DNA from: Bacteroidales bacterium
GTDB lineage: Bacteria; Bacteroidota; Bacteroidia; Bacteroidales; TTA-H9
NCBI GenBank assembly: GCA_035411425.1
Contig: DAONSX010000004.1
Span: forward strand, 16,392-80,391
Length of the DNA: 64,000 bases
Reading direction: 5' to 3'
Below are positions 256 to 53,100 of this stretch, one piece after another. Every line of letters begins with the position of its first letter. Position 1 is the first letter of the stretch. The notes under the pieces are model-generated. The model had not been told where the DNA came from and searched no databases. It was given only the letters and a program-made list of their open reading frames with translations. Made by a program: the position numbers and the translations under genes.

Positions 256-272
256 TTTTTTGACTTCAAATT

Positions 273-1106: not shown

Positions 1107-1206
1107 CACAGGATGTTCTTATTATAATTGATAGGACGATATAAGAGGGTATTTCCCATTCACTTTCATAGAAACTTTATCCGAATGACTTTATTGCTCA
1201 GGTTTG

Positions 1207-1214
1207 CAAAAGTA
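1207..1214 (-). promoter_or_regulatory. candidate -7 promoter box (TACTTTTG) for the PASTA gene
   Basis: Matches the Bacteroidota sigma-A -7 consensus TAnnTTTG on the minus strand, about 100 nt upstream of the ATG at 1106. Confidence 0.3.
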
Positions 1215-1343
1215 TCAATAATCTGTCATTTTTAAGGTTTTCCGGCCGTTTCATTCTTTATGATCTTTAGGTTCGAAAGAAAATTTCTAATCCTATAGCT
1301 GAACAATGTTTTTGTAATTTCGCATGCTAAATTTTATAGAACA

Positions 1344-2327: not shown

Positions 2328-2330
2328 ATT

Positions 2331-2930: not shown

Positions 2931-2981
2931 TTCCAGATTGTTATTCGTCTTTTATCAATCATATATCATATATCTTGTATT

Positions 2982-3743
2982 TTATCTTAATATATTCCAA
3001 TCTTCTATGATGAGCTTCCCTTCGATATTAAGTTGTTCCTCTTCTGGAAGACGAGCAAAGAAATTGAATCCTGTTAGCCTTTCCAGCGAATCAATAGTAA
3101 TGGCCGATTGCATCAAAACCTTGGAAGAATAACTATTTTGCATTACGAAAGCTATTCCCGATTTCTTGTGGTGTGTGTAAATAACTACTGCCTTATAAAA
3201 ATACTTTGGCACACTCACTTTACCATGTCCTATTTTTGGAAGGTCCGAGCTAAGGACAGGACCTGTTGTAATGAGCAAGGTATCATAAATCCGAGCCCAC
3301 TGCCGTACCTTTTCTTCAAGCTTTTTCCACGTTATGCGGTTAAATTGAGGCTGCTGAGGACAAATATTACTCAAATAGAATGATTCTTTCATTGCCTGCG
3401 CCGACCATGCCATATCAGCGGCTGGTGCTAAATGACCCCGGTCGTAACCACTATATTTATAATCTATTGAATGAGCCGACCATTCATCAGGCAGTTGTGG
3501 ATCGGGTATAAAATGGTTGGATTTTTTCACTGATTTTAGAAGCTTATAGGGCACTATGTCGTAAGCTACCCAATCGGAAAGTTTGTGATTCTTGTCATAT
3601 TTCAAAGTGAATCCTACATGCCTGATGACAAGTTCATCCTCGGAATACTCCGGTAAACACCATATTTCCGGTTGAGCAAATAAACCCCCTTCCCTAATCA
3701 TTAAAATAAAAAAGACTATTGACCAGATGAAGTTCTTCGACAT
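2982..3743 (-). CDS. secreted DNA/RNA non-specific endonuclease (NUC/EndoG-like)
   Basis: DRGHLAPAADM active-site motif and a signal peptide. The track start at 3746 is TTG; the ATG is at 3743. Confidence 0.85.
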   Translation of the reverse strand: MSKNFIWSIVFFILMIREGGLFAQPEIWCLPEYSEDELVIRHVGFTLKYDKNHKLSDWVAYDIVPYKLLKSVKKSNHFIPDPQLPDEWSAHSIDYKYSGYDRGHLAPAADMAWSAQAMKESFYLSNICPQQPQFNRITWKKLEEKVRQWARIYDTLLITTGPVLSSDLPKIGHGKVSVPKYFYKAVVIYTHHKKSGIAFVMQNSYSSKVLMQSAITIDSLERLTGFNFFARLPEEEQLNIEGKLIIEDWNILR

Positions 3744-26595: not shown

Positions 26596-26667
26596 GGCCC
26601 GTTCGTCTAGGGGTTAGGACGCAAGGTTTTCATCCTTGTAACAGGGGTTCGATTCCCCTACGGGCTA
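26596..26667 (+). tRNA. tRNA-Glu (anticodon UUC)
   Basis: Hand-folded cloverleaf: acceptor GGCCCGT/ACGGGCT, D arm GTCT-AGGGGTTA-GGAC, anticodon stem CAAGG/CCTTG with loop TTTTCAT (TTC at positions 34-36), 4-nt variable loop, T arm AGGGG-TTCGATT-CCCCT, discriminator A. The architecture is very close to E. coli tRNA-Glu. CCA is not encoded. Confidence 0.9.
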
Positions 26668-26730
26668 CAAAATGAAGGTGAAGAGAGAAATCTGAAATAA
26701 TTGATGTTTTCTGTTGTCGATGCTTCAATG

Positions 26731-26940
26731 GTGTTGAGTGTTTTTGTTTTAATTTAGGTGAACGGAGAATGGTGGATAGTGATTGGTGAATGAGGACTGG
26801 GAGACGAAGAGACAAGGTGGTTGGTGGATAGTGGATGGTGATTAGAATTTGGAATTTTGTAATTGTTAGTTGGATTTTGGAATTTGTTTGTAATTTGTAA
26901 TTTGGAGTTTGATAGTTGTTTGTTGTCAGTTGTTTGAATA
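26731..26940 (+). repeat. C-depleted G/T-rich low-complexity repeat, copy A of a dispersed family
   Basis: Only 5 C in 210 nt, with a 113-nt C-free run (26814-26926). It shares exact words with the 32961-33393 element: GGACTGGGAGACGA (26794-26807 = 33000-33013) and GGATGGTGATTAG (reverse complement at 33267-33279), plus GAACGGAG, CAAGGTGG.TTGGTGGA and ATTAGAATTTG.AATTT in the same order. Confidence 0.8.
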
Positions 26941-26970: not shown

Positions 26971-28356
26971 TTATTTATGCACTCTTTTTAAAAATTGCTC
27001 TATCTCGGGTACGCCACCTTGAAAAACAAGATAGCCATTATAAGGTTCTCGTTCGGTAATTTCATCATTGATAGGAGTAAGCATAAGACGTTTTACTTCT
27101 TCGGGATCGTCGGTTTGACCTAAAACCCAGCTCAGTTTGATGTAAGCAGTTTCGGGTAGCATATTGCCTGCTGGAATGATTCCTTTGGCCATCATATCGC
27201 GTCCAGTATCGTAAACGAACATGTGAACATAGCCCCATATAGTTTGAACGGTCATAAACATGTGAATACCCAATTTATGTGCTCTTTCGATGGCGGGATA
27301 AAGTTCCTTGTTTACATGTCCCAGGCCAGTTCCTACAAATATAATTCCTTTATAGCCCATATCAATGATTCCGTTGAGTATGTCGGGATGCATGCCAGGG
27401 TAGTAATAGAGCATGGTAACCCTTTCGTCATAATAGGGTTTGATAATTACTTGGCGATCTTTTCTACGAGGATTATATTTTTTCTTGATGGGAGTGACGC
27501 CTTTACGTGTAACCATAGCTACGGGAGTGTCGCTAATCGTGCGGAAAGTGGAGCGGTAGCTCGAGTGCATTTTTCTAACTCTGGTTCCACGATGAAGTAA
27601 GCCATATTCATCGCTGGTAGGTCCAAACATACAAACTAGAACTTCGGCTATGTCGCCATGGCCAGCGGCAGTCATGGCATGCATCAAGTTCAATGCGGCA
27701 TCACTGCTTGGTCTGTCGGATGAACGCTGCGAACCAACCAAGATGATTGGTACAGGAGAATTCTGTACCATGAACGAAAGTGCGGCTCCTGTATGTGAAA
27801 GCGTGTCTGTGCCATGCCCTATCACAATGCCATCTACTCCTTTCTCGATTTCTTTTCCTATAGCTATAGCAAGCGCTTTGTATTGGGTAGGGCCCATATT
27901 CTCACTGAATACAGCAAAAAGCTTTTCGGTTTCGAGATTACAAATGTCAGCTAATTCAGGCACAGCTCCGTAAAGTTCACCAGGCGTAAAAGCCGGTATA
28001 ACCGCTCCAGTCCGATAATCGAGCCTTGATGCAATTGTACCGCCAGTACCCAAAAGTTTTACCTTGGGGAGACCAGGTGTAAAAGGGAATTGCTTCTCGG
28101 GTATCTTGTAATTGGCTTTTTTATAACCTATCTCTTTCATTTCGATAATGGTACGAACATCTATCCCAATATTGTAGCCGGTGGCTATCTTTATGACGAT
28201 GTGTAAATCATCGTCGTTTTCTGCTCTGGGTAATACCGTACCCTTGAAATCACCCCGACTGGTTTTTATTTCAGCCTGTCCCCATACTCTAACGTTGAAT
28301 TGCTTCAATATTTCGAGTGCCCTGCCTTTATAGCCCTGAAAAATATCTTCACTCAT
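26971..28356 (-). CDS. gatD: Glu-tRNA(Gln) amidotransferase subunit D (archaeal-type GatD)
   Basis: ~95-aa GatD-specific N-terminal domain, then an asparaginase core: LLGTGGTIASRLDYRTGAV, IGHGTDTLSHTGAALSF, GSQRSSDRPSSDAALNL. Collinear with archaeal GatD as I recall it. Confidence 0.85.
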   Translation of the reverse strand: MSEDIFQGYKGRALEILKQFNVRVWGQAEIKTSRGDFKGTVLPRAENDDDLHIVIKIATGYNIGIDVRTIIEMKEIGYKKANYKIPEKQFPFTPGLPKVKLLGTGGTIASRLDYRTGAVIPAFTPGELYGAVPELADICNLETEKLFAVFSENMGPTQYKALAIAIGKEIEKGVDGIVIGHGTDTLSHTGAALSFMVQNSPVPIILVGSQRSSDRPSSDAALNLMHAMTAAGHGDIAEVLVCMFGPTSDEYGLLHRGTRVRKMHSSYRSTFRTISDTPVAMVTRKGVTPIKKKYNPRRKDRQVIIKPYYDERVTMLYYYPGMHPDILNGIIDMGYKGIIFVGTGLGHVNKELYPAIERAHKLGIHMFMTVQTIWGYVHMFVYDTGRDMMAKGIIPAGNMLPETAYIKLSWVLGQTDDPEEVKRLMLTPINDEITEREPYNGYLVFQGGVPEIEQFLKRVHK

Positions 28357-28537
28357 TGTAAGTAATTAAATTTAGTTGATCCGATTATTATTGACAGCTT
28401 TTCCATTTTTCAATTATTTCAAAAAATAAAAAATCGAATATTATTTTTTTTATTTCTAAATTAGCATTTTTAAACTGTTTATATATATCTTTAATAATCT
28501 TAGAATTTAGCAAAATACATGAATAGTTCTTCATGTT

Positions 28538-30580
28538 TTACTCCTTTTCAGGCAATTGAACAACGGATTCGAGTAAATTTCTCAATTCAAACATGGAAAT
28601 ATTGCCCAAAGCAGTTTCCTGAAGTTGTCCCATGATCCAGTTAATTTTATTTTCAGGTTGAGGGTTGATGGCGATTTCGTCGAATTTTTTCGATAAGAAA
28701 TTTATTTTGGAAAGGAGATCTTCTTTCGATACACGTTTAAATTTAAGAATCGTAAGTACTGAGTCAAAATCCATTCCAGGGTGGTCGTAAACTTCGGGAA
28801 ACATTTTTTGCGCCAGTCTCAAATCGAGATGATTATTCTTCAGGTATTCGAAGAGGTCGTAGATGCGGTCGAATTGGAATGTGGATGACGGACCCTTTTG
28901 TCCCTCGATATATTTGACGGTATGTCCCAGAAAACTTCCTGTAAACCGGGCTGGAACATCAAGCTCGGTATAGATGCGTTCGATGAGAGGATAAAGATTC
29001 TTCTTGAAGATGTAAGTAAATGTATCTTGAGGTACTTTCCATTGAACCAATTGGTTATAACGAACCATGACTTCAGTGGGCAAATCTTTTTGAATTTCTT
29101 CTATATACTCATCGGTCAGAGGTATAGGTGCAGAATCGGTATCGGGGTACATACGGTCGGCGCCGGGTAAAACGCGTTCAAATATAGTAGTACCGTCTTC
29201 GAAGGATTTCCGGGTTTCGGGTGGAACTCCGTCGAATGCCATCCAACAGCGTTCTTCAATAGTTTCCAATGCGGTAGAGATATCATCTTCGGGCCCCCAA
29301 AAAACAATCTGAGCGTCATTTTCTTCAGCTTGCAATATCTGGCAGATTTTGCTCCAGTCTTCTTCATTAATTTCTGGTGTAAAGGACTCAGAATGCGTCA
29401 TATTGGGCTTTTCTATGCAGGCAATTACCTTAAGTCGGTCAGAAATTTCGTTGGCAAAGCAATGCTCTGGTTGAGTGAAATGAGAAAGGATGCCGCGAAA
29501 TTGAGAAAGGTTAACTGCAATAATCCGATAACGATTGTCGCGGGCCAAAATCAAGGCGGGCAAATCGAAATGGAAATCGAAAAAATTCAGACGTTTATAA
29601 GTCATTTTCCAGTTTTCCTTTTGGATACGAGATTGAAGTTTATCTCGAATGCGCAACAATGCCCATTGACGAAAAGATTCATTATGCGTTAATTCTGGAA
29701 TCCAGCGGGTATGCGAAACACCTTTGATTTCTACACGATGACCTCCTCTGCAGCTTACATTTACATCTTCACGTCCCGCGCCACTGCCCGTTCTTACATG
29801 TCCCGTGCTACGGTTGAGAAATCGAATATAATTGCAGGCCTCCATAACTTCATCGGGATTGGTGCAATCGGGATAGGTTACCGTTTCTATCAGGGGCATT
29901 CCCAAACGATCGGTTTTGAAAGTACGAAAATGGCCAATATCGGAAATTTCACGGCAGGCGTCTTCTTCGACACTCAGTTGTATAAGCCTGATTTTCTTGT
30001 GACGTAAAGGAATTTCGCCTTCCACTCCCACAATGGCCGTGCGCTGAAATCCTGTGGGTATGGAACCATCGAGATATTGTTTTCGTGTAATATGTACCTC
30101 GCCAACGATATTTAATTTGGATAGAAGTGAAATTTCGATGGCAATTCTCAGAGCCTGACGGTTCATTGGGAAAGGAGGAGTATCGTCCACCTCATACGTA
30201 CAGGCACTGTCATATTTGATTCGATAAATAATATTTTTTCGCGTTTTGAATTCCATTAAGGCAGTACCATCATATTCACCAAGTTCACTCAAGGTTGGCC
30301 GCATGTGCCGAATCACTTCGGCATCATAATCATCATCGGCATGATAAAGGCCTGCCGGGCAATTGCAGAATAATTTTTTTTCGGTGAACAATTGTTGATG
30401 AACTTCGAGACCCGATTTGAATCCAATGCGATCGTAGTCTTCCTGAGTGGCTTGCTTACGGTTTACATAACCAACCTGTCGACGAGTTTCTTCATAATTG
30501 GCTTTTGCATCGATGGCTGAAAAAGTAAAATGCAGCGTACTTTTGTTATTTTCTTGATTCTGAAAACGTTGTTTTGACAT
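28538..30580 (-). CDS. gatE: Glu-tRNA(Gln) amidotransferase subunit E (archaeal-type GatE)
   Basis: GLEVHQQL, MRPTLSELG, RKQYLDGSIPTGFQRT, DRLGMPLIET, REDVNVSCRGGHRVEIKGV. At 680 aa it is much longer than GatB. The track start at 30604 is TTG inside a -7 box; the ATG is at 30580. Confidence 0.85.
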   Translation of the reverse strand: MSKQRFQNQENNKSTLHFTFSAIDAKANYEETRRQVGYVNRKQATQEDYDRIGFKSGLEVHQQLFTEKKLFCNCPAGLYHADDDYDAEVIRHMRPTLSELGEYDGTALMEFKTRKNIIYRIKYDSACTYEVDDTPPFPMNRQALRIAIEISLLSKLNIVGEVHITRKQYLDGSIPTGFQRTAIVGVEGEIPLRHKKIRLIQLSVEEDACREISDIGHFRTFKTDRLGMPLIETVTYPDCTNPDEVMEACNYIRFLNRSTGHVRTGSGAGREDVNVSCRGGHRVEIKGVSHTRWIPELTHNESFRQWALLRIRDKLQSRIQKENWKMTYKRLNFFDFHFDLPALILARDNRYRIIAVNLSQFRGILSHFTQPEHCFANEISDRLKVIACIEKPNMTHSESFTPEINEEDWSKICQILQAEENDAQIVFWGPEDDISTALETIEERCWMAFDGVPPETRKSFEDGTTIFERVLPGADRMYPDTDSAPIPLTDEYIEEIQKDLPTEVMVRYNQLVQWKVPQDTFTYIFKKNLYPLIERIYTELDVPARFTGSFLGHTVKYIEGQKGPSSTFQFDRIYDLFEYLKNNHLDLRLAQKMFPEVYDHPGMDFDSVLTILKFKRVSKEDLLSKINFLSKKFDEIAINPQPENKINWIMGQLQETALGNISMFELRNLLESVVQLPEKE

Positions 30581-30601
30581 TAGAAAAGACGTTTGAGACT
30601 T

Positions 30602-30609
30602 CAAATGTA
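30602..30609 (-). promoter_or_regulatory. candidate -7 promoter box (TACATTTG) for gatE
   Basis: TAnnTTTG on the minus strand, 21 nt upstream of the ATG at 30580. Confidence 0.45.
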
Positions 30610-33074: not shown

Positions 33075-33193
33075 TTTTTCTCGCTGATTGACGCAGATTT
33101 ATATCGCTGATTCATGTTGATATTTTTCTGCGAGCATCTGCGAAGGCTTGTTTCTGCGATATCTGCGATAACATTTTTATTTTTCTCGCTGAT
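33075..33193. repeat. core of short direct-repeat boxes (TCTGCGA x4, TCGCTGAT x3)
   Basis: TCTGCGA at 33127, 33137, 33153 and 33162, with an inverted copy (CGCAGA) at 33092. TCGCTGAT at 33081, 33104 and 33186; the outer two are preceded by TTTTTC. Confidence 0.75.
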
Positions 33194-33393
33194 CCACCCT
33201 CTTTTAACAACTAACAACCACCAATTCCCAAATTACAATCAAATTTCAAATTCTAATCAACAATCACTAATCACCATCCACCAATCCACCTTGCTTCCCA
33301 AGTACCATCTCCAACCACCAACCCCCATCACCATTCTCTATTCTCCTTTCCTCCGTTCTCCCTTCCTTATATTATTAAAATCTCTCTTTTTTT
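33192..33393 (-). repeat. C-rich, G-depleted arm of the composite repeat element (copy B, right arm; reverse complement is homologous to copy A)
   Basis: Only 3 G in 202 nt, with a 101-nt G-free run (33192-33292). The reverse complement aligns with 26761-26875 through several exact 8-13-nt words. Confidence 0.8.
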
Positions 33394-33626: not shown

Positions 33627-34643
33627 TTAAGATATTTTATCAACAAAATTTAAAACCTTGTCAGGATCAATTTTTTCTAAAGTTGGCAGATAGATAATAC
33701 TATGAGGATCACGTCGTGAAAGGCCAATTGAATAAGCCTTATCGTAAAATTGCAGTATCATCAAGCAAGCTTCCTTGAAACGATATTGCAGGATGAGTTG
33801 AGTGATGGTTTGGGTTTGTTGAAGACCGAGTCGTTTTCTAATCTTCCAAACCATAGCGGCCAGTTCTTCTGGATTGGCCTGGCCATATTCTTTGGTGAGC
33901 CTTTCGGCTCTTTGTTCAGAAGGAATATCCAAAAAAATTAAAGGTGAAGCCTGCATTCGGTCAAAGATAGGCTTGGGAATGAAACAACGTCCTATACTTA
34001 TGCTCTCATCTTCCACCCATACAGGAAATTGCGGATTAAATGATGAAAGTTGTTGCCAGATTAGATTTTCAAATTGTTCTGTAGTAGGCTGTGGAGGCTG
34101 CATTAATCCACCAAAAACCGATCCTTTGTGATTAGCCAGCCCTTCAAGATCAAGTACCTGATGATGCATCTCGGCTAATCGAAATAAAAGTTCAGTTTTC
34201 CCACTTCCAGTCATCCCGCCTATTACAATGAATTTCCATGGGAATATGAAAGATTGATGGACATATCGACGAAAGGATTTATATCCTCCGACAAGCAAAA
34301 CGGGATTCAAACCAGCCAATCGAGCAAGGAAAGCGGCTGCTGCGCTACGCATTCCACCACGCCAACAATATATTTTCAATTGACGGTCCAACGAAACCCT
34401 TATCATTTCGTCTATTATTACAGGAAGCCAGTAAGAAGTAAGAGATATACCAATTTTTACTGCAGAAACTCTACCCTGTTGAACAAAGGCAATGCCCACT
34501 TGTTTGCGAACTTCATCGTCGAGCAATGGAATATTAATGGCATCCGGAATATGGCCATGAGTATATTCGCTCGGTGATCGTACATCCACGCAAGGTGCAT
34601 CAATCCTTAAAAAATTCTCAATATTTTTTACCGGGATTTCCAT
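33627..34643 (-). CDS. selU: tRNA 2-selenouridine(34) synthase
   Basis: N-terminal rhodanese domain with active-site CWRGGMRS, then P-loop GGMTGSGKTELL; 338 aa. Confidence 0.85.
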   Translation of the reverse strand: MEIPVKNIENFLRIDAPCVDVRSPSEYTHGHIPDAINIPLLDDEVRKQVGIAFVQQGRVSAVKIGISLTSYWLPVIIDEMIRVSLDRQLKIYCWRGGMRSAAAAFLARLAGLNPVLLVGGYKSFRRYVHQSFIFPWKFIVIGGMTGSGKTELLFRLAEMHHQVLDLEGLANHKGSVFGGLMQPPQPTTEQFENLIWQQLSSFNPQFPVWVEDESISIGRCFIPKPIFDRMQASPLIFLDIPSEQRAERLTKEYGQANPEELAAMVWKIRKRLGLQQTQTITQLILQYRFKEACLMILQFYDKAYSIGLSRRDPHSIIYLPTLEKIDPDKVLNFVDKIS

Positions 34644-36996: not shown

Positions 36997-38802
36997 TTAT
37001 CGTTTCTCGGCAAATGGTTTATATTGTTTTCCTCCTCCTTTGAAACCAGCATTCTTGTAAAATTCAACAAAGGTTAGACGCATAGGATGAACAAAAGCGC
37101 CAAGAGAACTAATGGCAATATTGCCCAAGTGAGCAATAACAAGGAATACCACGAAAAGAAGAGGTCCGATATAGGGAATTCCAAGAATAGACATAGCCAC
37201 GTTATTGATTACTATTCCAAGTATGGAACTGGAAATTCCCAAGGCAAAAAGTCGAATATAAGAGAGTAAATCGCCAAATATACCCGTTGCCATTCCATAT
37301 ACATCCCATAAACCTTTCCCAATTCTCACAAAAACATTGGTTTTTAAATCATTTAGGAAAAAGATCAATAAGCAGGAAACTCCTAAAATACTATATAGAA
37401 CGATGGTTTCTCCTTTAGGTAGAACGCCGGCCGAAACCAATCCTTGACGGATTAAAAGTCCCAAAATAAGGATCAACCAGCCAACCAATGAAAGTGCATT
37501 TCGAAACCCTTCTTGATGAGTAATATTAACAACTTTGATACACATTCCGAATACAATTTGCACTGCTCCAAGTATCAAAGAGAGCACCAGCATCTTGTTA
37601 CTATCGAAGAAATAGGATTTGATATTTTCCACAATGGGAATATCAGCATCTATAAGACTGATACCGAAGAAGGTTCCCGAAATTGCTCCGAAAATAAAGG
37701 TAGCTAAACTAAGATACTGTGCAAGAGTTACATAAGGTTTGAATGAAGGTTTAGCTTTGAATTTCTTAAACAAGGTAGCAGCAATAAATATAAACAATCC
37801 GTAACCAGCATCACCTAAGCAGAAGCCAAAAAACATCATAAAGAAAGGGGCAAAGAATGGAGTAAGATCCAGTTCGCCATACTTGGGTAAAGAATATAAG
37901 TGGCCAATGGGCTCGAATAATTTCGCGAAACTATTGTTGCGCAGGAGGATAGGAACCTTTTCGTTTGGATCTGGCTGAGTTTCGATATAAAAAATACCAT
38001 TTTCTTCGCAATACTTTTCAACGGTTTCTTTTGTTTCAACAGGGGCAAAACCTTCTAAAATCTTCAACTTCCCTTCTGCTTCCGATAAAGTGTTGTTTAC
38101 TACTACATGATAATCGACTTCGGAGGCAATTTGATGCAATGTTTTCTGCAAAAGAGGAATAGAGCTCGCAGCCAGCCTTGCAAATTCTTCTTCAATCTCG
38201 CTAAGGCGTGTCTGTATAGCTTCCTGTTTTTTTAACAATTCACTCAGAGGACGTTCGGGTGCTTTAACTTCTTCGGCCGGCAAATCAATCTCTTCCTGAC
38301 CTTCATTCACAAGAATGAAATAAATAACACCCGGCTGTTCATTCACCACCCCAATATTGTATTTCGATAACCACTGAGGATCGAATTTACGAGAAGGTAT
38401 GATATAAAAAGATATTCTCAATCCTGCTTTACGAAGTTTTTCGATAATTTGAGGGTCGAAATCTCCCCAGGGTTCAGTATATTCAATTTCCTTTTTCAAT
38501 GTAGCGAGTTGCTGATTTAAAGACTCGACCTCTGCCTGTAAATCTCTAATGTGTTCAAATATTTTCATTCCATCCCCTTCTGAGGGCGCTTCAGCTGTGA
38601 TTTCGGGTTTTTTATGCTTTTTAAGCAACTTGATGGTTTCAGCAACCTGCTTTTGCAAGGCAAGCCTTTCAGCTGCGTCTTTGTCGAGTTCCTTCTTCCG
38701 CTTTACGATATCTATAACACCCACAGATCGCAAGCCCTTTAGAAATCGTTCATAATCTTCATGATATACCAAAAAAATGAATTTGGTCATGGGGACTATC
38801 AT
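36997..38802 (-). CDS. atpI: V-type ATPase subunit I (a-type stator/channel)
   Basis: 601 aa with a soluble coiled N-terminal half and a multi-TM C-terminal half containing the conserved SYIRLFALG Arg motif. Its ATG overlaps the atpD stop (ATGA). Confidence 0.9.
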   Translation of the reverse strand: MIVPMTKFIFLVYHEDYERFLKGLRSVGVIDIVKRKKELDKDAAERLALQKQVAETIKLLKKHKKPEITAEAPSEGDGMKIFEHIRDLQAEVESLNQQLATLKKEIEYTEPWGDFDPQIIEKLRKAGLRISFYIIPSRKFDPQWLSKYNIGVVNEQPGVIYFILVNEGQEEIDLPAEEVKAPERPLSELLKKQEAIQTRLSEIEEEFARLAASSIPLLQKTLHQIASEVDYHVVVNNTLSEAEGKLKILEGFAPVETKETVEKYCEENGIFYIETQPDPNEKVPILLRNNSFAKLFEPIGHLYSLPKYGELDLTPFFAPFFMMFFGFCLGDAGYGLFIFIAATLFKKFKAKPSFKPYVTLAQYLSLATFIFGAISGTFFGISLIDADIPIVENIKSYFFDSNKMLVLSLILGAVQIVFGMCIKVVNITHQEGFRNALSLVGWLILILGLLIRQGLVSAGVLPKGETIVLYSILGVSCLLIFFLNDLKTNVFVRIGKGLWDVYGMATGIFGDLLSYIRLFALGISSSILGIVINNVAMSILGIPYIGPLLFVVFLVIAHLGNIAISSLGAFVHPMRLTFVEFYKNAGFKGGGKQYKPFAEKR

Positions 38803-39401
38803 ACCGCAACCTCCTTTTGGTCAAATCGATTCTTCAAGATTTTCTGCGAAGATTTGGAAAGGTTTTCTTCGTCTTCAAGGAAGCGTTTTATTTTGATAAC
38901 AGCTTCTTCATAACCTGGAATCTGAACTTTTTCGTAAAGATTTACTTTTTGGGTAGTTTTTTTACGGGCATGATCGAGCAATTTCATCTTGGCGTAGTAA
39001 AATTCTCTTTCGATAGCAATAGAGGCAAGTTTCTCGAGAATAAGGATGCCATCCATGTACCAAACTGGTTGATTGAAGAGGCTGAAGGGTTTTATTTCGA
39101 AATGGATTTGCTGAAGGATAGGGATACGCACTCCGGCAATTTTCTTAATCCCCAAGTCAACATCATGAATGACAACCAATCCGGGGTTGAACTCATTCCA
39201 TAAACGCACCATTTCATTGTATTCGGCCATAGCAGCAGACAACTTTTCATCGAGGCTTGTGGCATAATCCTTGGCTCGTTTCACTTCTGCTCTTAATGCC
39301 GATTCCTTGTTTTTTAAAGTAGGCAATGCTCGCAGGCGTATCCGGAGCTGCTTATTCATCTCCTGAAGAGAAGTCTTATTATATTGAAATTTTACCGCCA
39401 T
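38799..39401 (-). CDS. atpD: V-type ATPase subunit D
   Basis: 200-aa coiled-coil protein (LRALPTLKNKESALR...) in the operon position between B and I. Confidence 0.85.
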   Translation of the reverse strand: MAVKFQYNKTSLQEMNKQLRIRLRALPTLKNKESALRAEVKRAKDYATSLDEKLSAAMAEYNEMVRLWNEFNPGLVVIHDVDLGIKKIAGVRIPILQQIHFEIKPFSLFNQPVWYMDGILILEKLASIAIEREFYYAKMKLLDHARKKTTQKVNLYEKVQIPGYEEAVIKIKRFLEDEENLSKSSQKILKNRFDQKEVAV

Positions 39402-39464
39402 TTTCTACTCATTACTTTTATAGCTTTATCATTGGAAAATTTTCCATTCTTTACATATTGTGTT

Positions 39465-40787
39465 TTATTTTACAGGCCAGTATTTATCGACGAGTTCTTG
39501 TTTTATGCCCACTTCGGCCTGGTTAAAATGGCGTGCAAACAATTCCCAGCCTGTATCCAGCATTTTATCGATGTCGATGTTTACATCAATAGCCAGAAGA
39601 TATTCGGAATATTCTCTGGCAAAATCGAGTGCACGCTGGTCGTAATCCGTAAGGTCGAAGCCATTTTCGAGTTTAGTTTTGGCGTTGGCGGCGTCGGCAT
39701 AAAGACGTACGGCTGTATTCATCACTTGAGGATGATCCTCACGTGTCTTCTTTCCGATGACGAGTTGTTTCAGTCGTGAAAGGCTGCGGAAAGGATCGAC
39801 GATAACCTTCCCAATATCTGTATCACGCCGCAGGAAAAGCTGGCCTTCGGTGATATAACCCGTATTATCGGGTATGGCATGGGTAATATCGCCTCCTGAA
39901 AGGGTAGTAACTGCAATAATCGTAATGGAACCTCCACTGGGAAATTGGACAGCCTTTTCATAAATCTTGGCTAAATCGCTATAAAGTGAGCCGGGCATGG
40001 AGTCTTTAGAAGGTATCTGATCCATACGATTGGAGACTATACTGAGGGCATCGGCATAAAGTGTCATATCGGTAAGCAGCACCAAGACTTTTTCGTTTTT
40101 ATCGACTGCAAAATATTCGGCTGCCGTAAGAGCCATATCAGGAACCAGTAGGCGTTCGACGGGTGGATCTTCGGTAGTATTTACGAAACTGATGATACGG
40201 TCGAGGGCACCGGCGTTTTCGAACACATTTTTGTAGTAAAGGTAGTCGTCGTTCGTCAAGCCCATTCCGCCCAGAATGATCTTGTCGGCTTCGGCACGGA
40301 GAGCTACCATAGCCATTACCTGATTGAAGGGTTGATCGGGGTCGGCGAAAAAAGGAATTTTCTGTCCGGTGACCAGCGTATTATTTAAATCTATACCAGC
40401 TATTCCGGTGGCAATGAGCTCCGAAGGTTGGCGTCTTCTAACGGGGTTTACCGAAGGTCCACCAATGGGACGTTCTTCACCCTCTACCTCAGGACCTCCA
40501 TCGATAGGCTGACCATAAGCATTAAAAAAACGACCTGCCAAGTCATCGCTTACCTTGAGTGTAGGAGGACGGTTATAGAAAATAACTTCGGCATTGGAAG
40601 GAATTCCTTCTGTACCACCAAATACCTGAAGTGTTACTTCATTATCGATAATTTTTACCACTTGAGACAGGCGTCCATGCACCAGTGCCAGTTCTTCGTT
40701 GCCAACTCCCGAAGCTTTCAGCGTGCATGTAGCCTTGGTAATATTGCTGATATGGGTATATATTTTCTGGAATGCAAGTGGACTCAT
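39465..40787 (-). CDS. atpB: V-type ATPase subunit B
   Basis: 440 aa, non-catalytic A/B-family nucleotide-binding fold (GQKIPFFADPDQPFNQ, SRLKQLVIGKKTREDH). Confidence 0.95.
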   Translation of the reverse strand: MSPLAFQKIYTHISNITKATCTLKASGVGNEELALVHGRLSQVVKIIDNEVTLQVFGGTEGIPSNAEVIFYNRPPTLKVSDDLAGRFFNAYGQPIDGGPEVEGEERPIGGPSVNPVRRRQPSELIATGIAGIDLNNTLVTGQKIPFFADPDQPFNQVMAMVALRAEADKIILGGMGLTNDDYLYYKNVFENAGALDRIISFVNTTEDPPVERLLVPDMALTAAEYFAVDKNEKVLVLLTDMTLYADALSIVSNRMDQIPSKDSMPGSLYSDLAKIYEKAVQFPSGGSITIIAVTTLSGGDITHAIPDNTGYITEGQLFLRRDTDIGKVIVDPFRSLSRLKQLVIGKKTREDHPQVMNTAVRLYADAANAKTKLENGFDLTDYDQRALDFAREYSEYLLAIDVNIDIDKMLDTGWELFARHFNQAEVGIKQELVDKYWPVK

Positions 40788-42562
40788 TTTTTTAACTTCC
40801 TTTCCTCAATGATTTTATATAATTCATTTTCAAAATGTTTAAACTGTTCCGATTGAAATTCGGAATAATTCATTTGTTTCAATTGATTAATAATTCGTTT
40901 AAAGTAGGGGTTGACATCTTCGAAGCTGTCGAAATCGAAATTGGTTTCGTAAATATTTATCACCTTGTCGAGCATATATTTTTGGCGCGTCATGGGAGTA
41001 TTGAAGTCGATCTTGTCGAAGGCATCCTGTTGAAGAATAATGGAATCTATTACTTCTGATTTCCAGAAAGTAAGGTGATAATCCAGAGGAACACTATCAT
41101 CGCCCAGAATATTGATTTGTTCGGAAGCTTCACGTCCACGGATCATGATATTTTTCACCAGCATCACCTTATCGACCCAATCATCGGCAATGGTATTGCG
41201 CAATGATTCTTGAACCTCGGGATATTCGAGATATTTAGAATAACTTTCGATAGGATCGATGGCGGGATAACGTTTGCTATCAGCTCTTTGCTGAGATAGT
41301 GCATAAAAAGCTCGAGCTACTTTTTTTGTTGATTCGGTAACGGGTTCTTTCAAATTTCCGCCTGCAGGCGAAACCGTTCCAATAAATGTAATGCTTCCGG
41401 TTTGGTTATTGTTCAAATAGACATACCCTGCACGAGAGTAAAAGTTTGAGATAATTGCGGGCAGGTCCATAGGGAAGGCATCGGGGCCGGGGAGTTCTTC
41501 CATACGATTTGACATTTCGCGTAAGGCTTGTGCCCAGCGAGAGGTAGAGTCGGCCAGAAGTAATATCTTCAATCCCATCGAACGGTAATATTCGGCGATG
41601 GTCATAGCCGTATACACCGAGGCTTCACGGGCTGCAACGGGCATGTTAGAGGTATTGGCAATGATGGTAGTCCTTTCGATCAGTTTACGTCCCGTTCTTG
41701 GGTCTTCTAATTGGGGAAATTCTACGAAGAGCTCGACCACTTCATTGGCACGTTCGCCACAAGCGGCGACTATAACTATGTCGGCTTCGGCTTGACGCGA
41801 CAGCGCGTGTTGCAATACAGTCTTGCCGCTACCAAAGGGTCCCGGAATAAAACCCGTACCTCCTTCGGCCATAGGATTCAGAGTATCCATGGTACGAACG
41901 CCGGTTTGGAAAAGTTTGAAAGGTCGGGGTTTCTCCTTGTATGCCTTTATAGCCTGTTTTACAGGCCAATATTGAACCATGGTAACGGGATGGTCTTTCC
42001 CACTTTCATCCGTAAGCACGGCAATGGTATCATAAATCTTATGAAGACCACGAGGAACAATGGATTTAATGGTATATCTCCCTTCGAAAACGAAAGGCAC
42101 CATAATGCGATGAGGGATGGAATTTTCTATCACTTCGCCCAGCCAGTCGGCAGCTATCACCTGATCTCCGCCTTTTGCCAGAGGCTTGAAATCCCAAATC
42201 TTTTCAGGATCTAAAGCACGTGTATATTCACCGGGTTTAAGAAAAATCCCTGTCATTTCATGTAAATCGTGCATCAATCCATCATAAACACTCGAAAGGA
42301 TTCCAGGGCCAAGGGTGGCTTCGAGCATGTGTCCTTCGAATATTGCTGGTGAGCCGATTTTCAATCCACGGGTGCTTTCGAAAACTTGAGTATATGCCTT
42401 ATTACCGATAATTTTTATTACTTCTGCCATAAGATCGGTTCCATCATGGCTGATATAACAAATCTCATTTTGTGCAACAGGCCCTTCAACCTGCACAATC
42501 ACCAAATTCGCAATAATTCCGGAAACCTTTCCGGTAGTTTTTTTCGTGTTATTCATTATCAT
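40784..42562 (-). CDS. atpA: V-type ATPase catalytic subunit A
   Basis: 592 aa with Walker A GPFGSGKTV and the non-homologous insertion typical of A subunits. 4-nt overlaps with both neighbouring genes. Confidence 0.95.
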   Translation of the reverse strand: MIMNNTKKTTGKVSGIIANLVIVQVEGPVAQNEICYISHDGTDLMAEVIKIIGNKAYTQVFESTRGLKIGSPAIFEGHMLEATLGPGILSSVYDGLMHDLHEMTGIFLKPGEYTRALDPEKIWDFKPLAKGGDQVIAADWLGEVIENSIPHRIMVPFVFEGRYTIKSIVPRGLHKIYDTIAVLTDESGKDHPVTMVQYWPVKQAIKAYKEKPRPFKLFQTGVRTMDTLNPMAEGGTGFIPGPFGSGKTVLQHALSRQAEADIVIVAACGERANEVVELFVEFPQLEDPRTGRKLIERTTIIANTSNMPVAAREASVYTAMTIAEYYRSMGLKILLLADSTSRWAQALREMSNRMEELPGPDAFPMDLPAIISNFYSRAGYVYLNNNQTGSITFIGTVSPAGGNLKEPVTESTKKVARAFYALSQQRADSKRYPAIDPIESYSKYLEYPEVQESLRNTIADDWVDKVMLVKNIMIRGREASEQINILGDDSVPLDYHLTFWKSEVIDSIILQQDAFDKIDFNTPMTRQKYMLDKVINIYETNFDFDSFEDVNPYFKRIINQLKQMNYSEFQSEQFKHFENELYKIIEERKLKK

Positions 42563-43383
42563 GAAAACTCTTTAGGAAATTCATAGCTATTTTCCAAATC
42601 CTCGAGCAAACGTCTAAACATGGCTAAGCCTGCTTCTTTGTCGAGCCGCAGCCATCTTTGTACCATTTGGAACTTTAATATAAATGCAAGGATTATCTCT
42701 ATACTGAAATAATGAAAAGTATTCAATTCGTCAAGATAAGACCAGCGCAAAAGATCGAGCGATTTTTCCCTTTCTAATAAATTGTTGGTTTCAAAAATCT
42801 GAATAAGTTTTTCGATATAAGGGAATTGTTGTGCAAGTCCAAAATCTCTTGCCTGACTTTTAATGAGGGTTTGCGAAAATTCGTCATTGCCAATAATGAA
42901 CGAACGAGCATTGAGTTTAAATTTTCTGGCAGTAAGCGCCGCCATGATATTTCTAACATTCCTTTCGAATTTTATCCAATTCGACACGAATTTATTCTTG
43001 GTTTGAGCAGCATACTCAAGATATATGGCCGTCAATTGATCTTCCCAGCTTAGCTCGGGATAAACAGGCTGCTCTTCTTTAAAATGAAGAATAAAGTTTC
43101 GAAGATAATCGGGGAGAATCTTGGGATTCTTCATTTCTTCTTCGAGTATTTCTAAAGAATACTTTCCGTTAGGAATAAATTCTTCATTGGTTTTCAAAAG
43201 GAGATGAAGAAGATTTTTATTATCGATGGGTAAAAGAATCAATTCAACGAGTTTATAGTCGAAAGCCGAGAGATGATGCCGCAATTCGAGTTTGAATTCG
43301 GCAAAGTCGAGGGCAAGTTTGGATTGCTCGAGCACCAGGTCGGGCAAGCCTGCTACCAGATAATAATAATTTCTTCCCGACAT
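42559..43383 (-). CDS. DUF2764-family protein (Bacteroidota V-ATPase operon component, presumed C/d-like subunit)
   Basis: 274 aa in the conserved operon position between E and A in Bacteroidota V-ATPase operons. No catalytic motifs. Confidence 0.7.
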   Translation of the reverse strand: MSGRNYYYLVAGLPDLVLEQSKLALDFAEFKLELRHHLSAFDYKLVELILLPIDNKNLLHLLLKTNEEFIPNGKYSLEILEEEMKNPKILPDYLRNFILHFKEEQPVYPELSWEDQLTAIYLEYAAQTKNKFVSNWIKFERNVRNIMAALTARKFKLNARSFIIGNDEFSQTLIKSQARDFGLAQQFPYIEKLIQIFETNNLLEREKSLDLLRWSYLDELNTFHYFSIEIILAFILKFQMVQRWLRLDKEAGLAMFRRLLEDLENSYEFPKEFS

Positions 43384-44003
43384 TATTTCCCTCCGTAAAG
43401 AAGATGGTTGGTGCGCGGGCGGAGATAATTCTTGAAAAAGTTCTCGAAGTCTTCTTCGGTAAAGCTAATTACATAACTACCGTCGGCTGGGCCAATACGA
43501 AAACCTCTTCCTATTTTTTCATCATAAATCACCTTCAGGCCTTTGTTCATCAATTCTTTTGCTCTGGCTTCGAAATATTTTCCTAATTTTTCTTCATCTT
43601 CGGGAGGTAAAAAGAGCTGAACGCTTTGCCCTTTACCCGAATTATCGGGTTGCCATCTCGTAAGGATAGTCTCGATCATGCGTTTGATAAAATCTTTATC
43701 GTTGAAAGCCTCTTTGACAGACTGATCAACCATTTCGGTAAGTATAAGTTCGGTAATCTGTTGCCTGAGTGAGGAGATGGCCTGACGCGAAGATAATTTG
43801 ATTTCGTTGGTTACATTGCGCTTGAGCTCTTCGGCTTCACGACGCGCCTGCTCTATAATTCGACTGGCTTCATGTCTTGCATTCTGTAAAATTTCTTCGG
43901 CCTCTTTATTGGCCTTTCCCAATATAGCAGCCGCATCTGCCCGGGCCTTTTCAACACCCTCGTGATAGATTCTTTCCGTCAATTCCTGTAGTTTGCTATC
44001 CAT
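43383..44003 (-). CDS. atpE: V-type ATPase subunit E
   Basis: Charged coiled-coil N-terminus (MDSKLQELTERIYHEGVEKA...). The track start at 44027 is TTG inside a -7 box; the ATG is at 44003. Confidence 0.85.
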   Translation of the reverse strand: MDSKLQELTERIYHEGVEKARADAAAILGKANKEAEEILQNARHEASRIIEQARREAEELKRNVTNEIKLSSRQAISSLRQQITELILTEMVDQSVKEAFNDKDFIKRMIETILTRWQPDNSGKGQSVQLFLPPEDEEKLGKYFEARAKELMNKGLKVIYDEKIGRGFRIGPADGSYVISFTEEDFENFFKNYLRPRTNHLLYGGK

Positions 44004-44024
44004 TGCATTTTCAATTACACCAGG

Positions 44025-44032
44025 CAAAATTA
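44025..44032 (-). promoter_or_regulatory. candidate -7 promoter box (TAATTTTG) for the V-ATPase operon
   Basis: TAnnTTTG on the minus strand, 21 nt upstream of the ATG at 44003. Confidence 0.45.
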
Positions 44033-49894: not shown

Positions 49895-50171
49895 AATCTT
49901 TATGATATAAAAAGTGATTTCTTCGGTACACAAAACGATCCAACAATATTACGAATTTTTTTTATAAGCATCATTTGTTAAAAAAAATTCAAACTTTTTT
50001 TCAACAATAAGGCTCTGTAAAGAACGTTAAAAAACCTGAATAGTATCCCTACTGGAAAGATTTTTAGAGAAGAATTTCTTTCGATCGATAAAATTTTGAG
50101 GTGGAAATGCACAATTTTGTCTCGATTTTGTTTAAACTTTCGAAGGGATACTTTCCCAAACTTATTTGCCC

Positions 50172-53100
50172 ATGACATTAAGATTCAACCTATTGATTTT
50201 TGTTTGTGTGTGTGGACTCATTTTCGAAAGTTTCGCCCAAACTTCAAGTTCGTCCCAAAATATCACGCTGAAATGGGATAATTATAGTCTGAAAGATACT
50301 CTTTCGGGAAATCAAAGAACCATCCTGTATTTTCATGATGCTACTAACCTTTACGAAACCGGAGGCCTCCCCATATTCATTCAAAGGATTCCTTTGAAGC
50401 AATTATCCGACAGCATTTTCGTGAAGATATTCCCTTTAATTTCGGGAGAAGACAACTCCACTGATGTCGTCTCGTCAGAGTTTCTAAACAATGAATATCA
50501 ATTCTTTATAAAAAAATTAGAAATCAATGGAAAGGCCTATGGTCAGGTTGGAATATTACCAGTACGCATACATCCTATCCATAACAAAATCGAGGTTCTC
50601 GAAAAGTTTCATTTAGAAATCACTGTGAAAGAACAGGCTTTTCAAAATTTTCCCCAGTTGAAAATGGGTACTATTCAATCGGTTTTGAGCCAGGGCGAAT
50701 GGTACAAGATTCAGATTGCCGAAACAGGCATTTACAAAATATCCTTTGAAACACTTCAGTCGCAGGGAATCAATCTAAGTGGAATCGACCCACGAAACAT
50801 TCACATCCATGGCAATGGCGGCAGGGTGCTTCCCGAAGCCAATAATATGACTCGTTATGATGATTTGATGGAAATGAGTATTTATATTTTTGGCGAAGAA
50901 GACGGGAAATTCGATCCCGGTGATTATATTCTTTTTTATGCCCAAGGCCCTGGTTCGTGGGCTTTCAATACCCAAACAAAACGTTTTCAGTTCGATAAAC
51001 ATCCTTATTCCGATTTCGCTTATTGTTATATTACCATCAACAATTCTAAAGGGAAAAGAATACAATTAAATCCACTTCCAGAGGTCGAAGCCACTCAAAC
51101 CATAACCACTTTTACGGCTTATATTCATCATGAAGAAGACTTGATCAATCTTGGTAAAAGTGGAAGGCAATGGTATGGTGAATCCTTCGATATACAAAAC
51201 ACGATGAATTTCGCGATTTCCCTCGAGGGAGTGGTTAACGGAAGCCGTGTTTTACTCGAATCGGCTGTGGTCGCAAGTTCTTATTCTATCAGCAATATGA
51301 AGATTTCAGTGGGAGAAACTCCTTTCCTTGTTCAAACTATTTCTCCTATTCCTCCCCCTTCTCTCGATTCAGATTATGGGAAAAGAAGCATAGACACAGC
51401 TTCATTTAAAGCCAATAGTACAACGGTTTCACTTTCCTATAAATATATCAAGCCTTTGAATTCTTCTCAGGCCTGGCTCGATTATTTTACCATTAACTAT
51501 CAACGTAATCTGAGTTTTTCGGGTTCACAGATGAGCTTTCGTAAACCCATGCATTATTCGAGTACCCAAGTTGTACGATATAAGATAGGAAATGCCAGCC
51601 AGAACATTCAGATATGGGAGGTGACCAATGCCTTACGGCCTATGAGGATGCAAACCCAGCTTGCGGGAAATACGCTTACTTTCGATTCGAAAAACGATAC
51701 CTTGCGTGAATTTATCGCTTTTGACGGAAACAAATTTCTAAACCCGACTTTTATTGGTAAAGTTCCAAATCAAAATCTTCATGGGATGATCGATGCAGAT
51801 TATATCATCATAAGCCATCCCGATTTCTTGTCACAAGCTCAGGAACTTGCTAATATCCATGAATCAGAAAATCAATTCAATGTAAAAATTGTAACTCCCG
51901 AGATGGTTTACAATGAATTTTCGTCGGGCATACAAGATCCAAGCGCCATTCGTGATTTTATGAGGCATTTGAGGTTGAGTTCGGGCAACATTCGTAAACC
52001 AGCATATCTTCTACTATTTGGAGACGCCTCTTACGATTATAAAGACCGCATTCAGGGAAATACCAACTTTGTACCCACTTACCAATCGGACGAATCCTTA
52101 AATCCTTCTTATTCTTTTGCTACAGATGATTATTTTACCTTTCTCGACCAAAGCGAAGGGAAAGGTGGAGGTGGAACTCCCGATCTATGTGTTGGCCGAA
52201 TACCCGTTTTCACCCAGCAACAAGCCGATGATTATATGAAAAAATTCAAACAATATATCAGTGTGAGCACGACTTCAATGGGAGAATGGCGCACCAATCT
52301 TTGTTTTGTTGCCGACGATGAAGACAATAATTCGCATTTACGCCAAGCCGATGGCCTTGCCAATTTTATCGACACTACATATCCTCATTTCAACATTGAC
52401 AAGATTTTCCTCGATGCTTACGATCAAATTACTACACCCGGTGGCCAACGATATCCGGATGTAAATAAAGATATCACACAGCGCATCGAAAACGGACTCC
52501 TCATCATCAATTACACGGGCCATGGTGGTGAGCTGGGCTGGGCTCATGAGCGAATCCTCGAAATTAGTGATATAAATTCATGGAATAACTTCTATAAACT
52601 ACCTCTGTTTATTACTGCCACCTGCGAATTCAGCCGCTATGACGATCCCCAACGCGTTTCGGCAGGAGAATATGTTTTCCTAAATCCAAAGGGAGGAGGC
52701 ATTGCATTATTTACTACATCACGATTGACCTACGGTGGTTCTAATATAACTCTTAACCAAAATTTTTACAAATATGCATTCGAACGAACGAATGGCCAAT
52801 ACCGTACCTTGGGCGAGATTATCATGATTGCCAAGCAAAAAAGCGGTTCCGACCTGAATTGGATAAAATTCATTTTGCTCGGTGATCCAGCACTAAAACT
52901 TGCCTATCCCGAGAATAAAGTTAGTGCACTTACTATCAACAATACTTCGATCGAAATTTCTACCGACACCCTCAAGGCTCTGTCGAATGTTTCCATAACT
53001 GGCGAAGTTACCGATCCTCTAAGCTATCCATTACATAAATTCAATGGAACCGTTACGACCACCATTTTCGATAAGGTCTCGCTCATCAAAACCAAGGCAA

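Follow-up and report, generated by a model that had tools for sequence, protein, structure and literature searches.

The 64,000-nucleotide stretch of DNA analyzed here, referred to throughout as the window, stems from a Bacteroidales bacterium (GenBank assembly GCA_035411425.1, contig DAONSX010000004.1) and carries on its reverse strand two neighboring genes, gatE and gatD, which encode the subunits of a GatDE-type amidotransferase. gatE (28538..30580, minus strand) yields a protein of 680 amino acids when read from the ATG at 30580 to the stop codon at 28538-28540. Its product, the tRNA-dependent kinase/transamidase subunit, comprises in order a cradle, an insertion of the aspartyl-tRNA synthetase (AspRS)/GAD type, a helical domain and a YqeY-like tail. 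Downstream of it, gatD (26971..28356, minus strand) codes for the glutaminase/asparaginase-type ammonia-donor subunit, a protein of 461 amino acids in which a GatD_N domain is joined to a type I asparaginase fold. A mechanical list of open reading frames (ORFs) gives gatE as 28538-30604 (688 amino acids), beginning with a TTG that lies inside a TAnnTTTG box; the ATG at 30580 is the start used by independent gene calls in other assemblies. All motifs that the first-pass annotation, an earlier reading of the bare sequence, had quoted are present in the translations, both for GatD (TGGTIAS, HGTDT, GSQRSSDRPSSDA) and for GatE (GLEVHQQL, MRPTLSELG, RKQYLDGSIPTGFQRT, DRLGMPLIET, REDVNVSCRGGHRVEIKGV).

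The TAnnTTTG box just mentioned, TACATTTG (30602..30609, minus strand), corresponds to a Bacteroidota-type -7 promoter box, as judged from the sequence and a pattern scan, and the previously reported distance of 21 nt between it and the downstream ATG of gatE is confirmed. Its location is consistent with a role as promoter, for which motif counts provide no statistical proof: the motif is not enriched over the whole window, where 60 copies are found versus 64.8 expected. The nearest species-level genome, Bacteroidales bacterium UBA5762 (locus L001 in our comparison), encodes a GatE and a GatD that are 94 and 98% identical to those of the window and has the flanks in common with it; the translation of its ORF implies that the same box is present upstream of its gatE gene. 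The very AT-rich spacer of 181 nt between gatE and gatD (28357..28537, minus strand) is of similar length in L001; in those other lineages whose coordinates we examined (L022, L081, L082, L084, L086, L087), there is next to no gap between gatE and gatD, or their reading frames overlap. It is possible that the spacer accommodates a second promoter or a regulatory element.

The identity of GatD was assessed with profiles and with solved structures. Its bit scores of 495.2 on NF003217 (cut-off 310) and 491.4 on TIGR02153 (cut-off 324), both NCBI equivalog profiles for GatD, contrast with those on the asparaginase equivalogs NF006998 (128; cut-off 376) and NF008304 (121; cut-off 506), and a subfamily model for type I asparaginases reaches 372 bits as opposed to 495 for the GatD model. 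Pfam recognizes GatD_N (41.9 bits), Asparaginase (186.9 bits) and Asparaginase_C (111.3 bits), which bears out the proposal that an N-terminal domain precedes a type I asparaginase core. The closest solved structures are the GatD chains of Methanothermobacter thermautotrophicus (2D6F, chain 2d6f_A; 390 bits) and Pyrococcus abyssi (1ZQ1; 385 bits), while the closest plain asparaginase structure reaches 148 bits only. Read by eye from a printed alignment, the protein is about 55% identical to archaeal GatD. Its residues T107, T183, D184 and K262 align with T101, T177, D178 and K254 of the M. thermautotrophicus protein; these correspond to the threonine nucleophile and the Thr-Asp-Lys catalytic residues of the mutagenesis literature on GatD. 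The fold, the catalytic threonines, the aspartate and the lysine of the GatD core are common to type I L-asparaginases of the AnsA family, from which GatD differs by its additional GatD_N domain and by its invariable pairing with gatE.

GatE passes the NCBI equivalog NF003107 marginally (457.2 bits; cut-off 456) and TIGR00134 comfortably (393.2 bits; cut-off 319.55), whereas the best of the GatB models, all of which remain far below their cut-offs, gives 117.3 bits (cut-off 338). Among solved structures, 2d6f_C (287 bits) and 1zq1_C (268 bits) are closest, and the best GatB attains 76 bits. An AlphaFold2 model built on an alignment of 48 sequences is of high confidence (predicted local distance difference test, pLDDT, 90.9; predicted template modeling score, pTM, 0.86). 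Foldseek returns 1zq1_C as its top match (E=4.8e-46, TMt 0.81), followed by 2d6f_C/D; the GatE chains score with E-values of about 1e-46 to 1e-41, and GatB chains form a second tier at 1e-23 or weaker. The Foldseek alignments to the GatE structures span 512-544 columns with TMt values of 0.75-0.81 at 30-33% sequence identity, and the model also gives weak AspRS matches. In the comparison with the sequences of 2d6f_C and 1zq1_C, the insertion domain (residues ~290-460; 29201..29713, minus strand), the feature that distinguishes GatE from GatB, is aligned along its full extent, while the Pfam family GAD reaches E=0.18 only. Pfam GatB_N covers residues 64-502 of the 688-residue ORF and is interrupted by the insertion. 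H61, E205/E206 and E232 align with His15, Glu157/158 and Glu184 of M. thermautotrophicus, which form a His/Glu/Glu Mg2+ site (numbering mapped on 2d6f_C), and are invariant in the 48 bacterial and archaeal sequences aligned. The same holds for the blocks RKQ..DGS..GFQRT and YPDTD, including R166 K167, D171 G172 S173, F178 Q179 R180 T181 and Y478 P479 T481 D482. Both genes are intact, as proposed in the first-pass annotation, and strongly conserved.

Collectively, these profile comparisons, which the first-pass annotation had recommended, establish that the pair is a true GatD and GatE. Its assignment to GatE rather than to the shorter GatB is upheld, and the excess of about 200 residues is accounted for by the insertion domain. 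The notion of an ordinary bacterial L-asparaginase encoded beside an ordinary GatB, which the homology of the catalytic cores to both of these families might suggest, has next to nothing in its favor and is ruled out by the passing of the GatD and GatE equivalogs, by the failure of asparaginase and GatB models (the latter at or below 117 bits with cut-offs of at least 314), by the presence of GatD_N and of the GatE insertion, and by structure matches that favor GatE. Neither a GatB equivalog nor the length of about 480 residues without an insertion that characterizes GatB is found in the 680-residue protein. GatE and the GatB subunit of GatCAB have the cradle, the Mg2+/ATP-dependent kinase-transamidase chemistry and a D-loop-binding YqeY-like tail in common. 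The usual amidotransferase of bacteria is GatCAB; in the system under study, by contrast, there is no GatA or GatC partner, and ammonia is supplied by the asparaginase-type GatD subunit. In our by-eye reading of the 48-sequence alignment, a short loop of the GatE type takes the place of the region of the 3-10 turn of GatB, whose role we adopt from PMC2811023.

The gatE-gatD module is by no means restricted to the genome at hand. Scanning one genome per GTDB species revealed 474 relatives, so that at least 474 species-representative genomes, the majority of them from Bacteroidales, harbor the module. The best 80 of these relatives, which we used for locus comparison, are all at least 61% identical and are labeled mostly as Bacteroidales, Lentimicrobiaceae, Prolixibacteraceae and Draconibacterium. 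The best 120 matches among 5.8 billion proteins derive exclusively from Bacteroidales/Bacteroidota (63-94% identity); some of them are encoded on contigs of 3-5 Mb, and the name GatE has already been assigned to these proteins by both NCBI and JGI. In all of the 80 loci in which the contig allows a statement, gatD lies directly downstream of gatE, with GatD proteins that are 74-98% identical, and the same immediate succession is seen in further bacterial loci, among them those of Aminicenantales and Calditrichia. Apart from the two genes themselves, no neighbor is conserved across the related loci. In a Pfam census of 126 immediate neighbors, OstA-like/LptD_N is the commonest family (17 occurrences), and the 25 most frequent families contain no translation genes. 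Hence, gatE and gatD behave as a self-contained two-gene module. Three contigs (L020, L068 and L074) carry a gatE of the Bacteroidales type that is 62-65% identical to that of the window, yet they are labeled Omnitrophica, Edwardsbacteria and Neomarinimicrobiota; either these contigs were mis-binned or the module has spread laterally. Homologues are thus widespread in Bacteroidota, which is one half of an outcome that the first-pass annotation had named as refuting its view; the other half, an already described role for them, we did not find.

The placement of the Bacteroidales proteins within the GatE family was approached through an exhaustive search of cluster representatives at 50% identity, which returned 586 GatE-like sequences at E<=1e-30. 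A distance-based neighbor-joining tree of GatE representatives, calculated without a GatB outgroup and with the domain of life checked for some of its members, splits them into two groups, A and B. The Bacteroidales GatE proteins nest, on a long stem, in group A, the members of which are 40-54% identical to the query, and a group A profile retrieved proteins from Calditrichia, KSB1, Krumholzibacteria, Aminicenantes/Aminicenantales, Ca. Desulfaltia and entries labeled simply 'bacterium'. Six group A neighborhoods are plainly bacterial, with gatD right after gatE wherever the contig allows; genes in these neighborhoods encode a hybrid histidine kinase, RecO/FtsX/RodZ/Fpg, DnaA/L28, sigma-70/RND/SecA or a Mur ligase. 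Group B holds both archaeal crystal-structure sequences, and its most basal member in our sampling is encoded beside S13-S4-S11-aS21, an archaeal arrangement. Both the Bacteroidales clade and the split between bacteria and archaea receive a bootstrap support of 100/100.

To judge from this tree, the pair falls within a deep clade of GatDE enzymes that spans several phyla, is distinct from archaeal GatDE and has, as far as its members were checked, an entirely bacterial membership. This clade may be the sister of archaeal GatE or may be nested among the archaea, as the neighbor-joining tree is compatible with both topologies. An archaea-to-bacteria transfer, if it took place at all, would predate the diversification of the bacterial GatDE clade. 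The suggestion of a notable inter-domain transfer into this particular genome consequently has to be abandoned in favor of a vertically maintained member of a large bacterial clade. At the basal archaeal locus (L088), gatD (3-1376, minus strand) is arranged divergently beside gatE (1594-3534, plus strand), and its GatD protein seems, by eye in the alignment, to resemble the bacterial GatDs more than its M. thermautotrophicus counterpart does. L088 possibly points to the archaea that are most closely related to the bacterial clade.

The genomic surroundings fit a long residence in the host. We found GldJ, PorP/SprF, PorV and sorting domains of the type IX secretion system, which substantiates the Bacteroidota nature of the flanks, and further flanking products in the window are Ppk1, LpdA, MnmH, MurF, DnaB and a V-type ATPase. 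The GC content of the two genes (0.43 and 0.42), their GC content at third codon positions (0.40 and 0.39) and their codon usage do not depart from the range spanned by the other 37 ORFs. A GatD protein identical to that of the window is recorded in 629 blocks of a public assembly collection, and the contigs read from those blocks display the order M50B-like ORF, gatE (680 amino acids), gatD, lpdA and sixA. In comparison with L001, the ratios of non-synonymous to synonymous substitutions (dN/dS) are 0.015 for gatD and 0.041 for gatE at a dS of about 0.78; both genes are under purifying selection of housekeeping grade. The pair is hence domesticated rather than contaminant DNA, as had been proposed on the basis of its flanks and promoter box, since its composition is host-like, its flanks are those of Bacteroidota, and the same neighborhood was assembled in hundreds of samples. 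A recent transfer from archaea, contaminating archaeal DNA or a chimeric join, for which nothing speaks beyond the archaeal reputation of the family, is refuted by this composition, by the Bacteroidota genes on either side, by the recurrence of the arrangement in the contigs read from the 629 blocks, by the presence of the module on two complete chromosomes (OY762227.1 and OY781043.1), and by nearest relatives that are bacterial, archaeal GatE being only ~30-36% identical; we consequently regard it as exceedingly improbable.

A GT-rich element of about 170 nt is present in the window in two inverted copies, at 26770-26930 (plus strand) and 33130-33290 (minus strand), with core arms at 26816-26857 and 33241-33282. 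The copies bracket gatD, gatE, an M50B-like membrane ORF and an ORF with tetratricopeptide repeats. The core 15-mer of the element is confined to these two sites in the window, where 0.08 occurrences are expected by chance, and it is absent from all 90 loci compared, including that of the closest relative L001. It may represent a small dispersed repeat or one that resembles miniature inverted-repeat transposable elements. We considered the two copies as ends of a mobile cassette and rejected this idea, as they are absent in L001 and as the synteny with L001 runs past the arm on the gatD side into lpdA and sixA.

The relationship of the module to glutaminyl-tRNA synthetase (GlnRS) bears directly on its function. 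A full-length GlnRS that is 57% identical to the Escherichia coli enzyme is encoded on the same contig as gatE and gatD in L022 and L015, and a co-directional glnS-gatE-gatD cluster is present in L082 and L083 and on a contig of 75.8 kb. Within one Bacteroidales sublineage, glnS, gatE and gatD are arranged head to tail on a single strand (L082 and L083, 8001-13190 in both; L022, 1708-7840; L015, 5-4888). The cluster has the form folB/glnS-gatE-gatD, and in L082/L083 it is preceded at a distance of a few kb by glnA and tyrS. A general glnS-gatE-gatD operon can be rejected in view of the glnS loci L091 and L092, in which the module is missing; the linkage is lineage-specific. Because GlnRS coexists with the module in relatives of the window, the supply of Gln-tRNA(Gln) does not depend on GatDE alone. 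The linkage modestly favors a role related to glutamine. Motifs of GatA or GatB were not found in the window or in 1.27 Mb of sequence from the first 80 related loci, a small part of each genome, and among the 120 matches listed for each search, GatE and GlnRS have no large contigs in common. [quoted passage not shown] The relatives of the window depart from this setting through GlnRS (L015, L022, L082 and L083) and through a tRNA(Gln) with U1-A72 (L029), a difference that concerns the context rather than the protein family. A tRNA-Glu(UUC) gene (26596-26668, plus strand) is located about 300 nt beyond the stop codon of gatD on the opposite strand. We discarded it as a functional partner, since it is an ordinary tRNA(Glu) with G1-C72 and since no tRNA is kept beside gatD in the 80 loci.

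GatE of the window carries an N-terminal extension (residues 1-47; 30440..30580, minus strand), delineated through the 48-sequence alignment and the AlphaFold2 model. The GLEVHQQL block begins at residue 57, in comparison to residue 11 in the M. thermautotrophicus protein, so that the extension amounts to about 46 residues. This is close to the approximately 50 extra residues noted previously, and, as stated then, there is no Met inside the extension. In Bacteroidales, GLExH is preceded by a median of 38 residues, compared with 22 in the remaining bacteria and 12 in archaeal proteins. The extension has no Pfam match; in the model, residues 1-17 are predicted to be disordered and residues 25-36 to form a helix with confidence, and the helix carries the motif NYEETxxQxGYVxRKxATQ, which is conserved in Bacteroidales GatE. 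At the other end of the protein lies the YqeY-like tail (residues ~542-671; 28568..28957, minus strand), the counterpart of which in GatB/GatE reads the D-loop of the tRNA. Pfam GatB_Yqey scores 23.3 bits on it (E=6.3e-5), under the gathering score of 27; the fold of the tail is present but weakly recognized. W648 in the tail is invariant in, and unique to, the Bacteroidales GatE clade (88/88).

What might the function of this enzyme be? With high confidence, the pair forms an active tRNA-dependent amidotransferase of whatever specificity, and we consider it somewhat better than an even bet, with a probability of roughly 0.55, that it acts on Glu-tRNA(Gln) in the manner of its archaeal counterpart. 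By analogy to the archaeal enzyme, the asparaginase-type Thr/Thr-Asp-Lys site of GatD would hydrolyze glutamine (or asparagine) and thereby release ammonia. GatE would bind the mischarged tRNA and, with ATP consumed at the His/Glu/Glu Mg2+ site, phosphorylate the carboxyl group in the side chain of the glutamate esterified to tRNA(Gln); transfer of the ammonia by GatE would then yield Gln-tRNA(Gln). We infer the formation of the complex, its chemistry, the amide donor and the use of tRNA(Gln) rather than tRNA(Asn) as substrate from these analogies. Because the host lineage also possesses GlnRS, GatDE most likely would provide a parallel, indirect route, or it would clean up Glu-tRNA(Gln) produced by a putative glutamyl-tRNA synthetase (GluRS) that does not discriminate fully. 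This assignment is carried by the membership in the GatDE family, the catalytic residues, the fold of GatE, the purifying selection, the strict modular arrangement, the long residence in the host and the coexistence with glnS, all of which were demonstrated above.

Several observations weigh against an action on Glu-tRNA(Gln). The adjacency to glnS is limited to one sublineage, and the related glnS loci L091 and L092 get by without the module. The tRNA(Gln) of a relative (L029) has a U1-A72 pair; archaeal GatDE is reported to read A1-U72 of tRNA(Gln). According to Table S1 of PMC4206432, cultured Bacteroidales use GlnRS together with asparaginyl-tRNA synthetase (AsnRS) and have no GatCAB. A need for an indirect route to glutamine is not apparent, and a non-discriminating GluRS of the host is hypothetical. 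The tail of GatE also departs from its archaeal counterpart. With a relaxed pattern, the GxxAxGx motif is found in 15 of 37 archaeal GatE proteins, in none of 133 from other bacteria and in none of 88 from Bacteroidales; at this position, the other bacteria feature a basic motif, (D/N)P(E/D)KKxR(Y/F)LMG. Two positions, 658 and 660, flank a conserved glycine of the D-loop pocket. Of the 149 GatE proteins from other bacteria, 125 have Arg/Lys at position 658 and 133 at position 660; the corresponding counts for the 44 archaeal proteins are 38 and 34. In Bacteroidales, the basic residues are replaced in all 88 sequences, by I/L/T/E/V at position 658 and by Asn at position 660 (Asn in 88/88). The GxxAxGx motif and the basic residues of the D-loop pocket are described in PMC2811023 as features of archaeal GatE, and they lie outside of what the profiles define. 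With a tail of this kind, a specificity other than that for Glu-tRNA(Gln) is conceivable.

One candidate alternative is that bacterial GatDE, or at least its Bacteroidales form, amidates Asp-tRNA(Asn), either alone or besides Glu-tRNA(Gln). The absence of GxxAxGx from the entire bacterial clade, together with the basic motif that other bacteria have in its place, is suggestive in this respect, as the motif has been credited in archaeal GatE with the exclusion of Asp-tRNA(Asn); this credit rests on the citation of earlier work in a paper. In addition, bacteria that possess GlnRS, AsnRS and GatCAB are thought, according to PMC4206432, to use their amidotransferase for asparagine, and in Table S1 of that paper some of the cultured Bacteroidales, which are devoid of GatCAB, are also devoid of both asnA and asnB. 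If true, GatDE would perform the job of GatCAB, tRNA-dependent asparagine synthesis, in organisms in which GlnRS is present. It is well established, on the other hand, that archaeal GatDE is specific for Glu-tRNA(Gln). Moreover, glnS is the sole translation gene that we found beside the module, aspS and asnS do not figure in the 25 Pfam families that occur most often in the 126 immediate neighbors, and a non-discriminating AspRS exists only as a hypothesis. On balance, we hold an action on Asp-tRNA(Asn) to be unlikely, while ranking it next behind the Glu-tRNA(Gln) route that operates alongside GlnRS.

Even less probable, in our estimation, is a more radical change of role, in which the Bacteroidales pair would have been neofunctionalized so that the same chemistry serves another aminoacyl-tRNA or carboxylate, or so that its principal role lies in regulation or quality control and not in the bulk supply of Gln-tRNA(Gln). 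The clade-specific changes fall exactly into the tRNA-reading parts of the protein (W648 and N660 in 88/88, and the lost basic residue at 658), the N-terminal helix is a new and, in the model, confidently folded element, the Bacteroidales clade sits on a long stem, and GatDE coexists with GlnRS. These traits have to be set against the retention of the whole GatE architecture, insertion domain and tail included, against the invariance of all catalytic residues, against the high conservation of GatD, both across the 80 loci and toward its archaeal counterparts, and against the lack of any new conserved partner gene. A broader scenario combines several of these elements: an old, multi-phylum bacterial GatDE with a different tail, the Bacteroidales form of which was retuned, through its helix and the loss of the basic residues, to accept another substrate or a wider range of them, for instance Asp-tRNA(Asn) or the two amide tRNAs together. 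We entertain it as a tentative possibility that is nonetheless rather doubtful; should it be correct, it would represent the first GatDE-dependent synthesis of Asn/Gln on tRNA in Bacteria or, alternatively, the first bacterium in which the direct and the indirect route to Gln-tRNA(Gln) operate side by side. In 2014, according to PMC4206432, bacteria that encode both of these routes were not known.

The preferred Glu-tRNA(Gln) route can be viewed against known systems. The window's pair agrees with the archaeal GatDE enzymes represented by 2D6F and 1ZQ1 in its two subunits, its domain order and its catalytic residues. It differs from them through a bacterial host with a U1-A72 tRNA(Gln), the presence of GlnRS in the lineage and its position in a separate clade of the tree; archaea lack GlnRS. 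Furthermore, GatE of the window is devoid of GxxAxGx, and the Bacteroidales proteins add the N-terminal helix and lose two basic residues of the tail. At the level of gene organization, bacterial gatE and gatD are joined as one module, whereas gatD is divergent beside gatE in the single archaeal locus examined (L088). An amidotransferase that is kept beside the direct GlnRS route has a precedent in Bdellovibrio bacteriovorus and Deinococcus radiodurans, both of which have GlnRS, AsnRS and GatCAB (PMC4206432). These bacteria employ GatCAB, to which the formation of Asn-tRNA(Asn) is tentatively ascribed; the enzyme described here is GatDE, the archaeal form of which does not use Asp-tRNA(Asn).

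Other features of the window deserve a brief mention. The gene for MnmH, a tRNA 2-selenouridine synthase (33627-34643, minus strand), is situated near the pair and has an unrelated tRNA-modifying function. An operon for a V/A-type ATPase (36997-44027, minus strand), of which we identified the subunits I, B and A, encodes an enzyme that is usually thought to be archaeal-type. Just upstream of porV, two giant paralogous ORFs are arranged in tandem (50166-53999 and 54028-57819, plus strand; 1277 and 1263 amino acids), and both contain a direct repeat of 56 nt whose copies are exactly one gene length (3817 nt) apart.

The first-pass annotation had stated that GatDE is treated as an archaeal enzyme, and the literature confirms this: GatDE is said to be confined to archaea in PMC2811023 (2009), PMC8007984 (2021) and PMC9499178 (2022). 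This statement serves reviews up to 2022 as a premise (PMC2811023, PMC8007984, PMC9499178) when they discuss the evolution of Gln-tRNA(Gln) synthesis and of tRNA(Gln) identity, the reason for which archaea did not acquire GlnRS, and the question of whether the last universal common ancestor possessed both amidotransferases. In the open-access literature, with subscription-only papers lying outside our search, we found no description of a bacterial GatDE; the genes thus seem to be correctly named by standard annotation and yet undiscussed in open-access papers. The large and strongly conserved bacterial GatDE clade, partly clustered with glnS, removes the premise of an archaea-only enzyme. It renders several questions testable: whether the clade is sister to or nested among archaeal GatE, whether GatDE is able to read a bacterial tRNA(Gln) with U1-A72, whether both routes to Gln-tRNA(Gln) operate in the same organism, and whether the specificity has changed. 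For the Bacteroidales bacterium from which the window stems, gatD and gatE are ordinary genes that have long resided in its genome. For the family, the archaea-specific status of GatDE no longer holds, and the coexistence of the enzyme with GlnRS and its altered tail constitute the broader point, one that should be of moderate interest to specialists.

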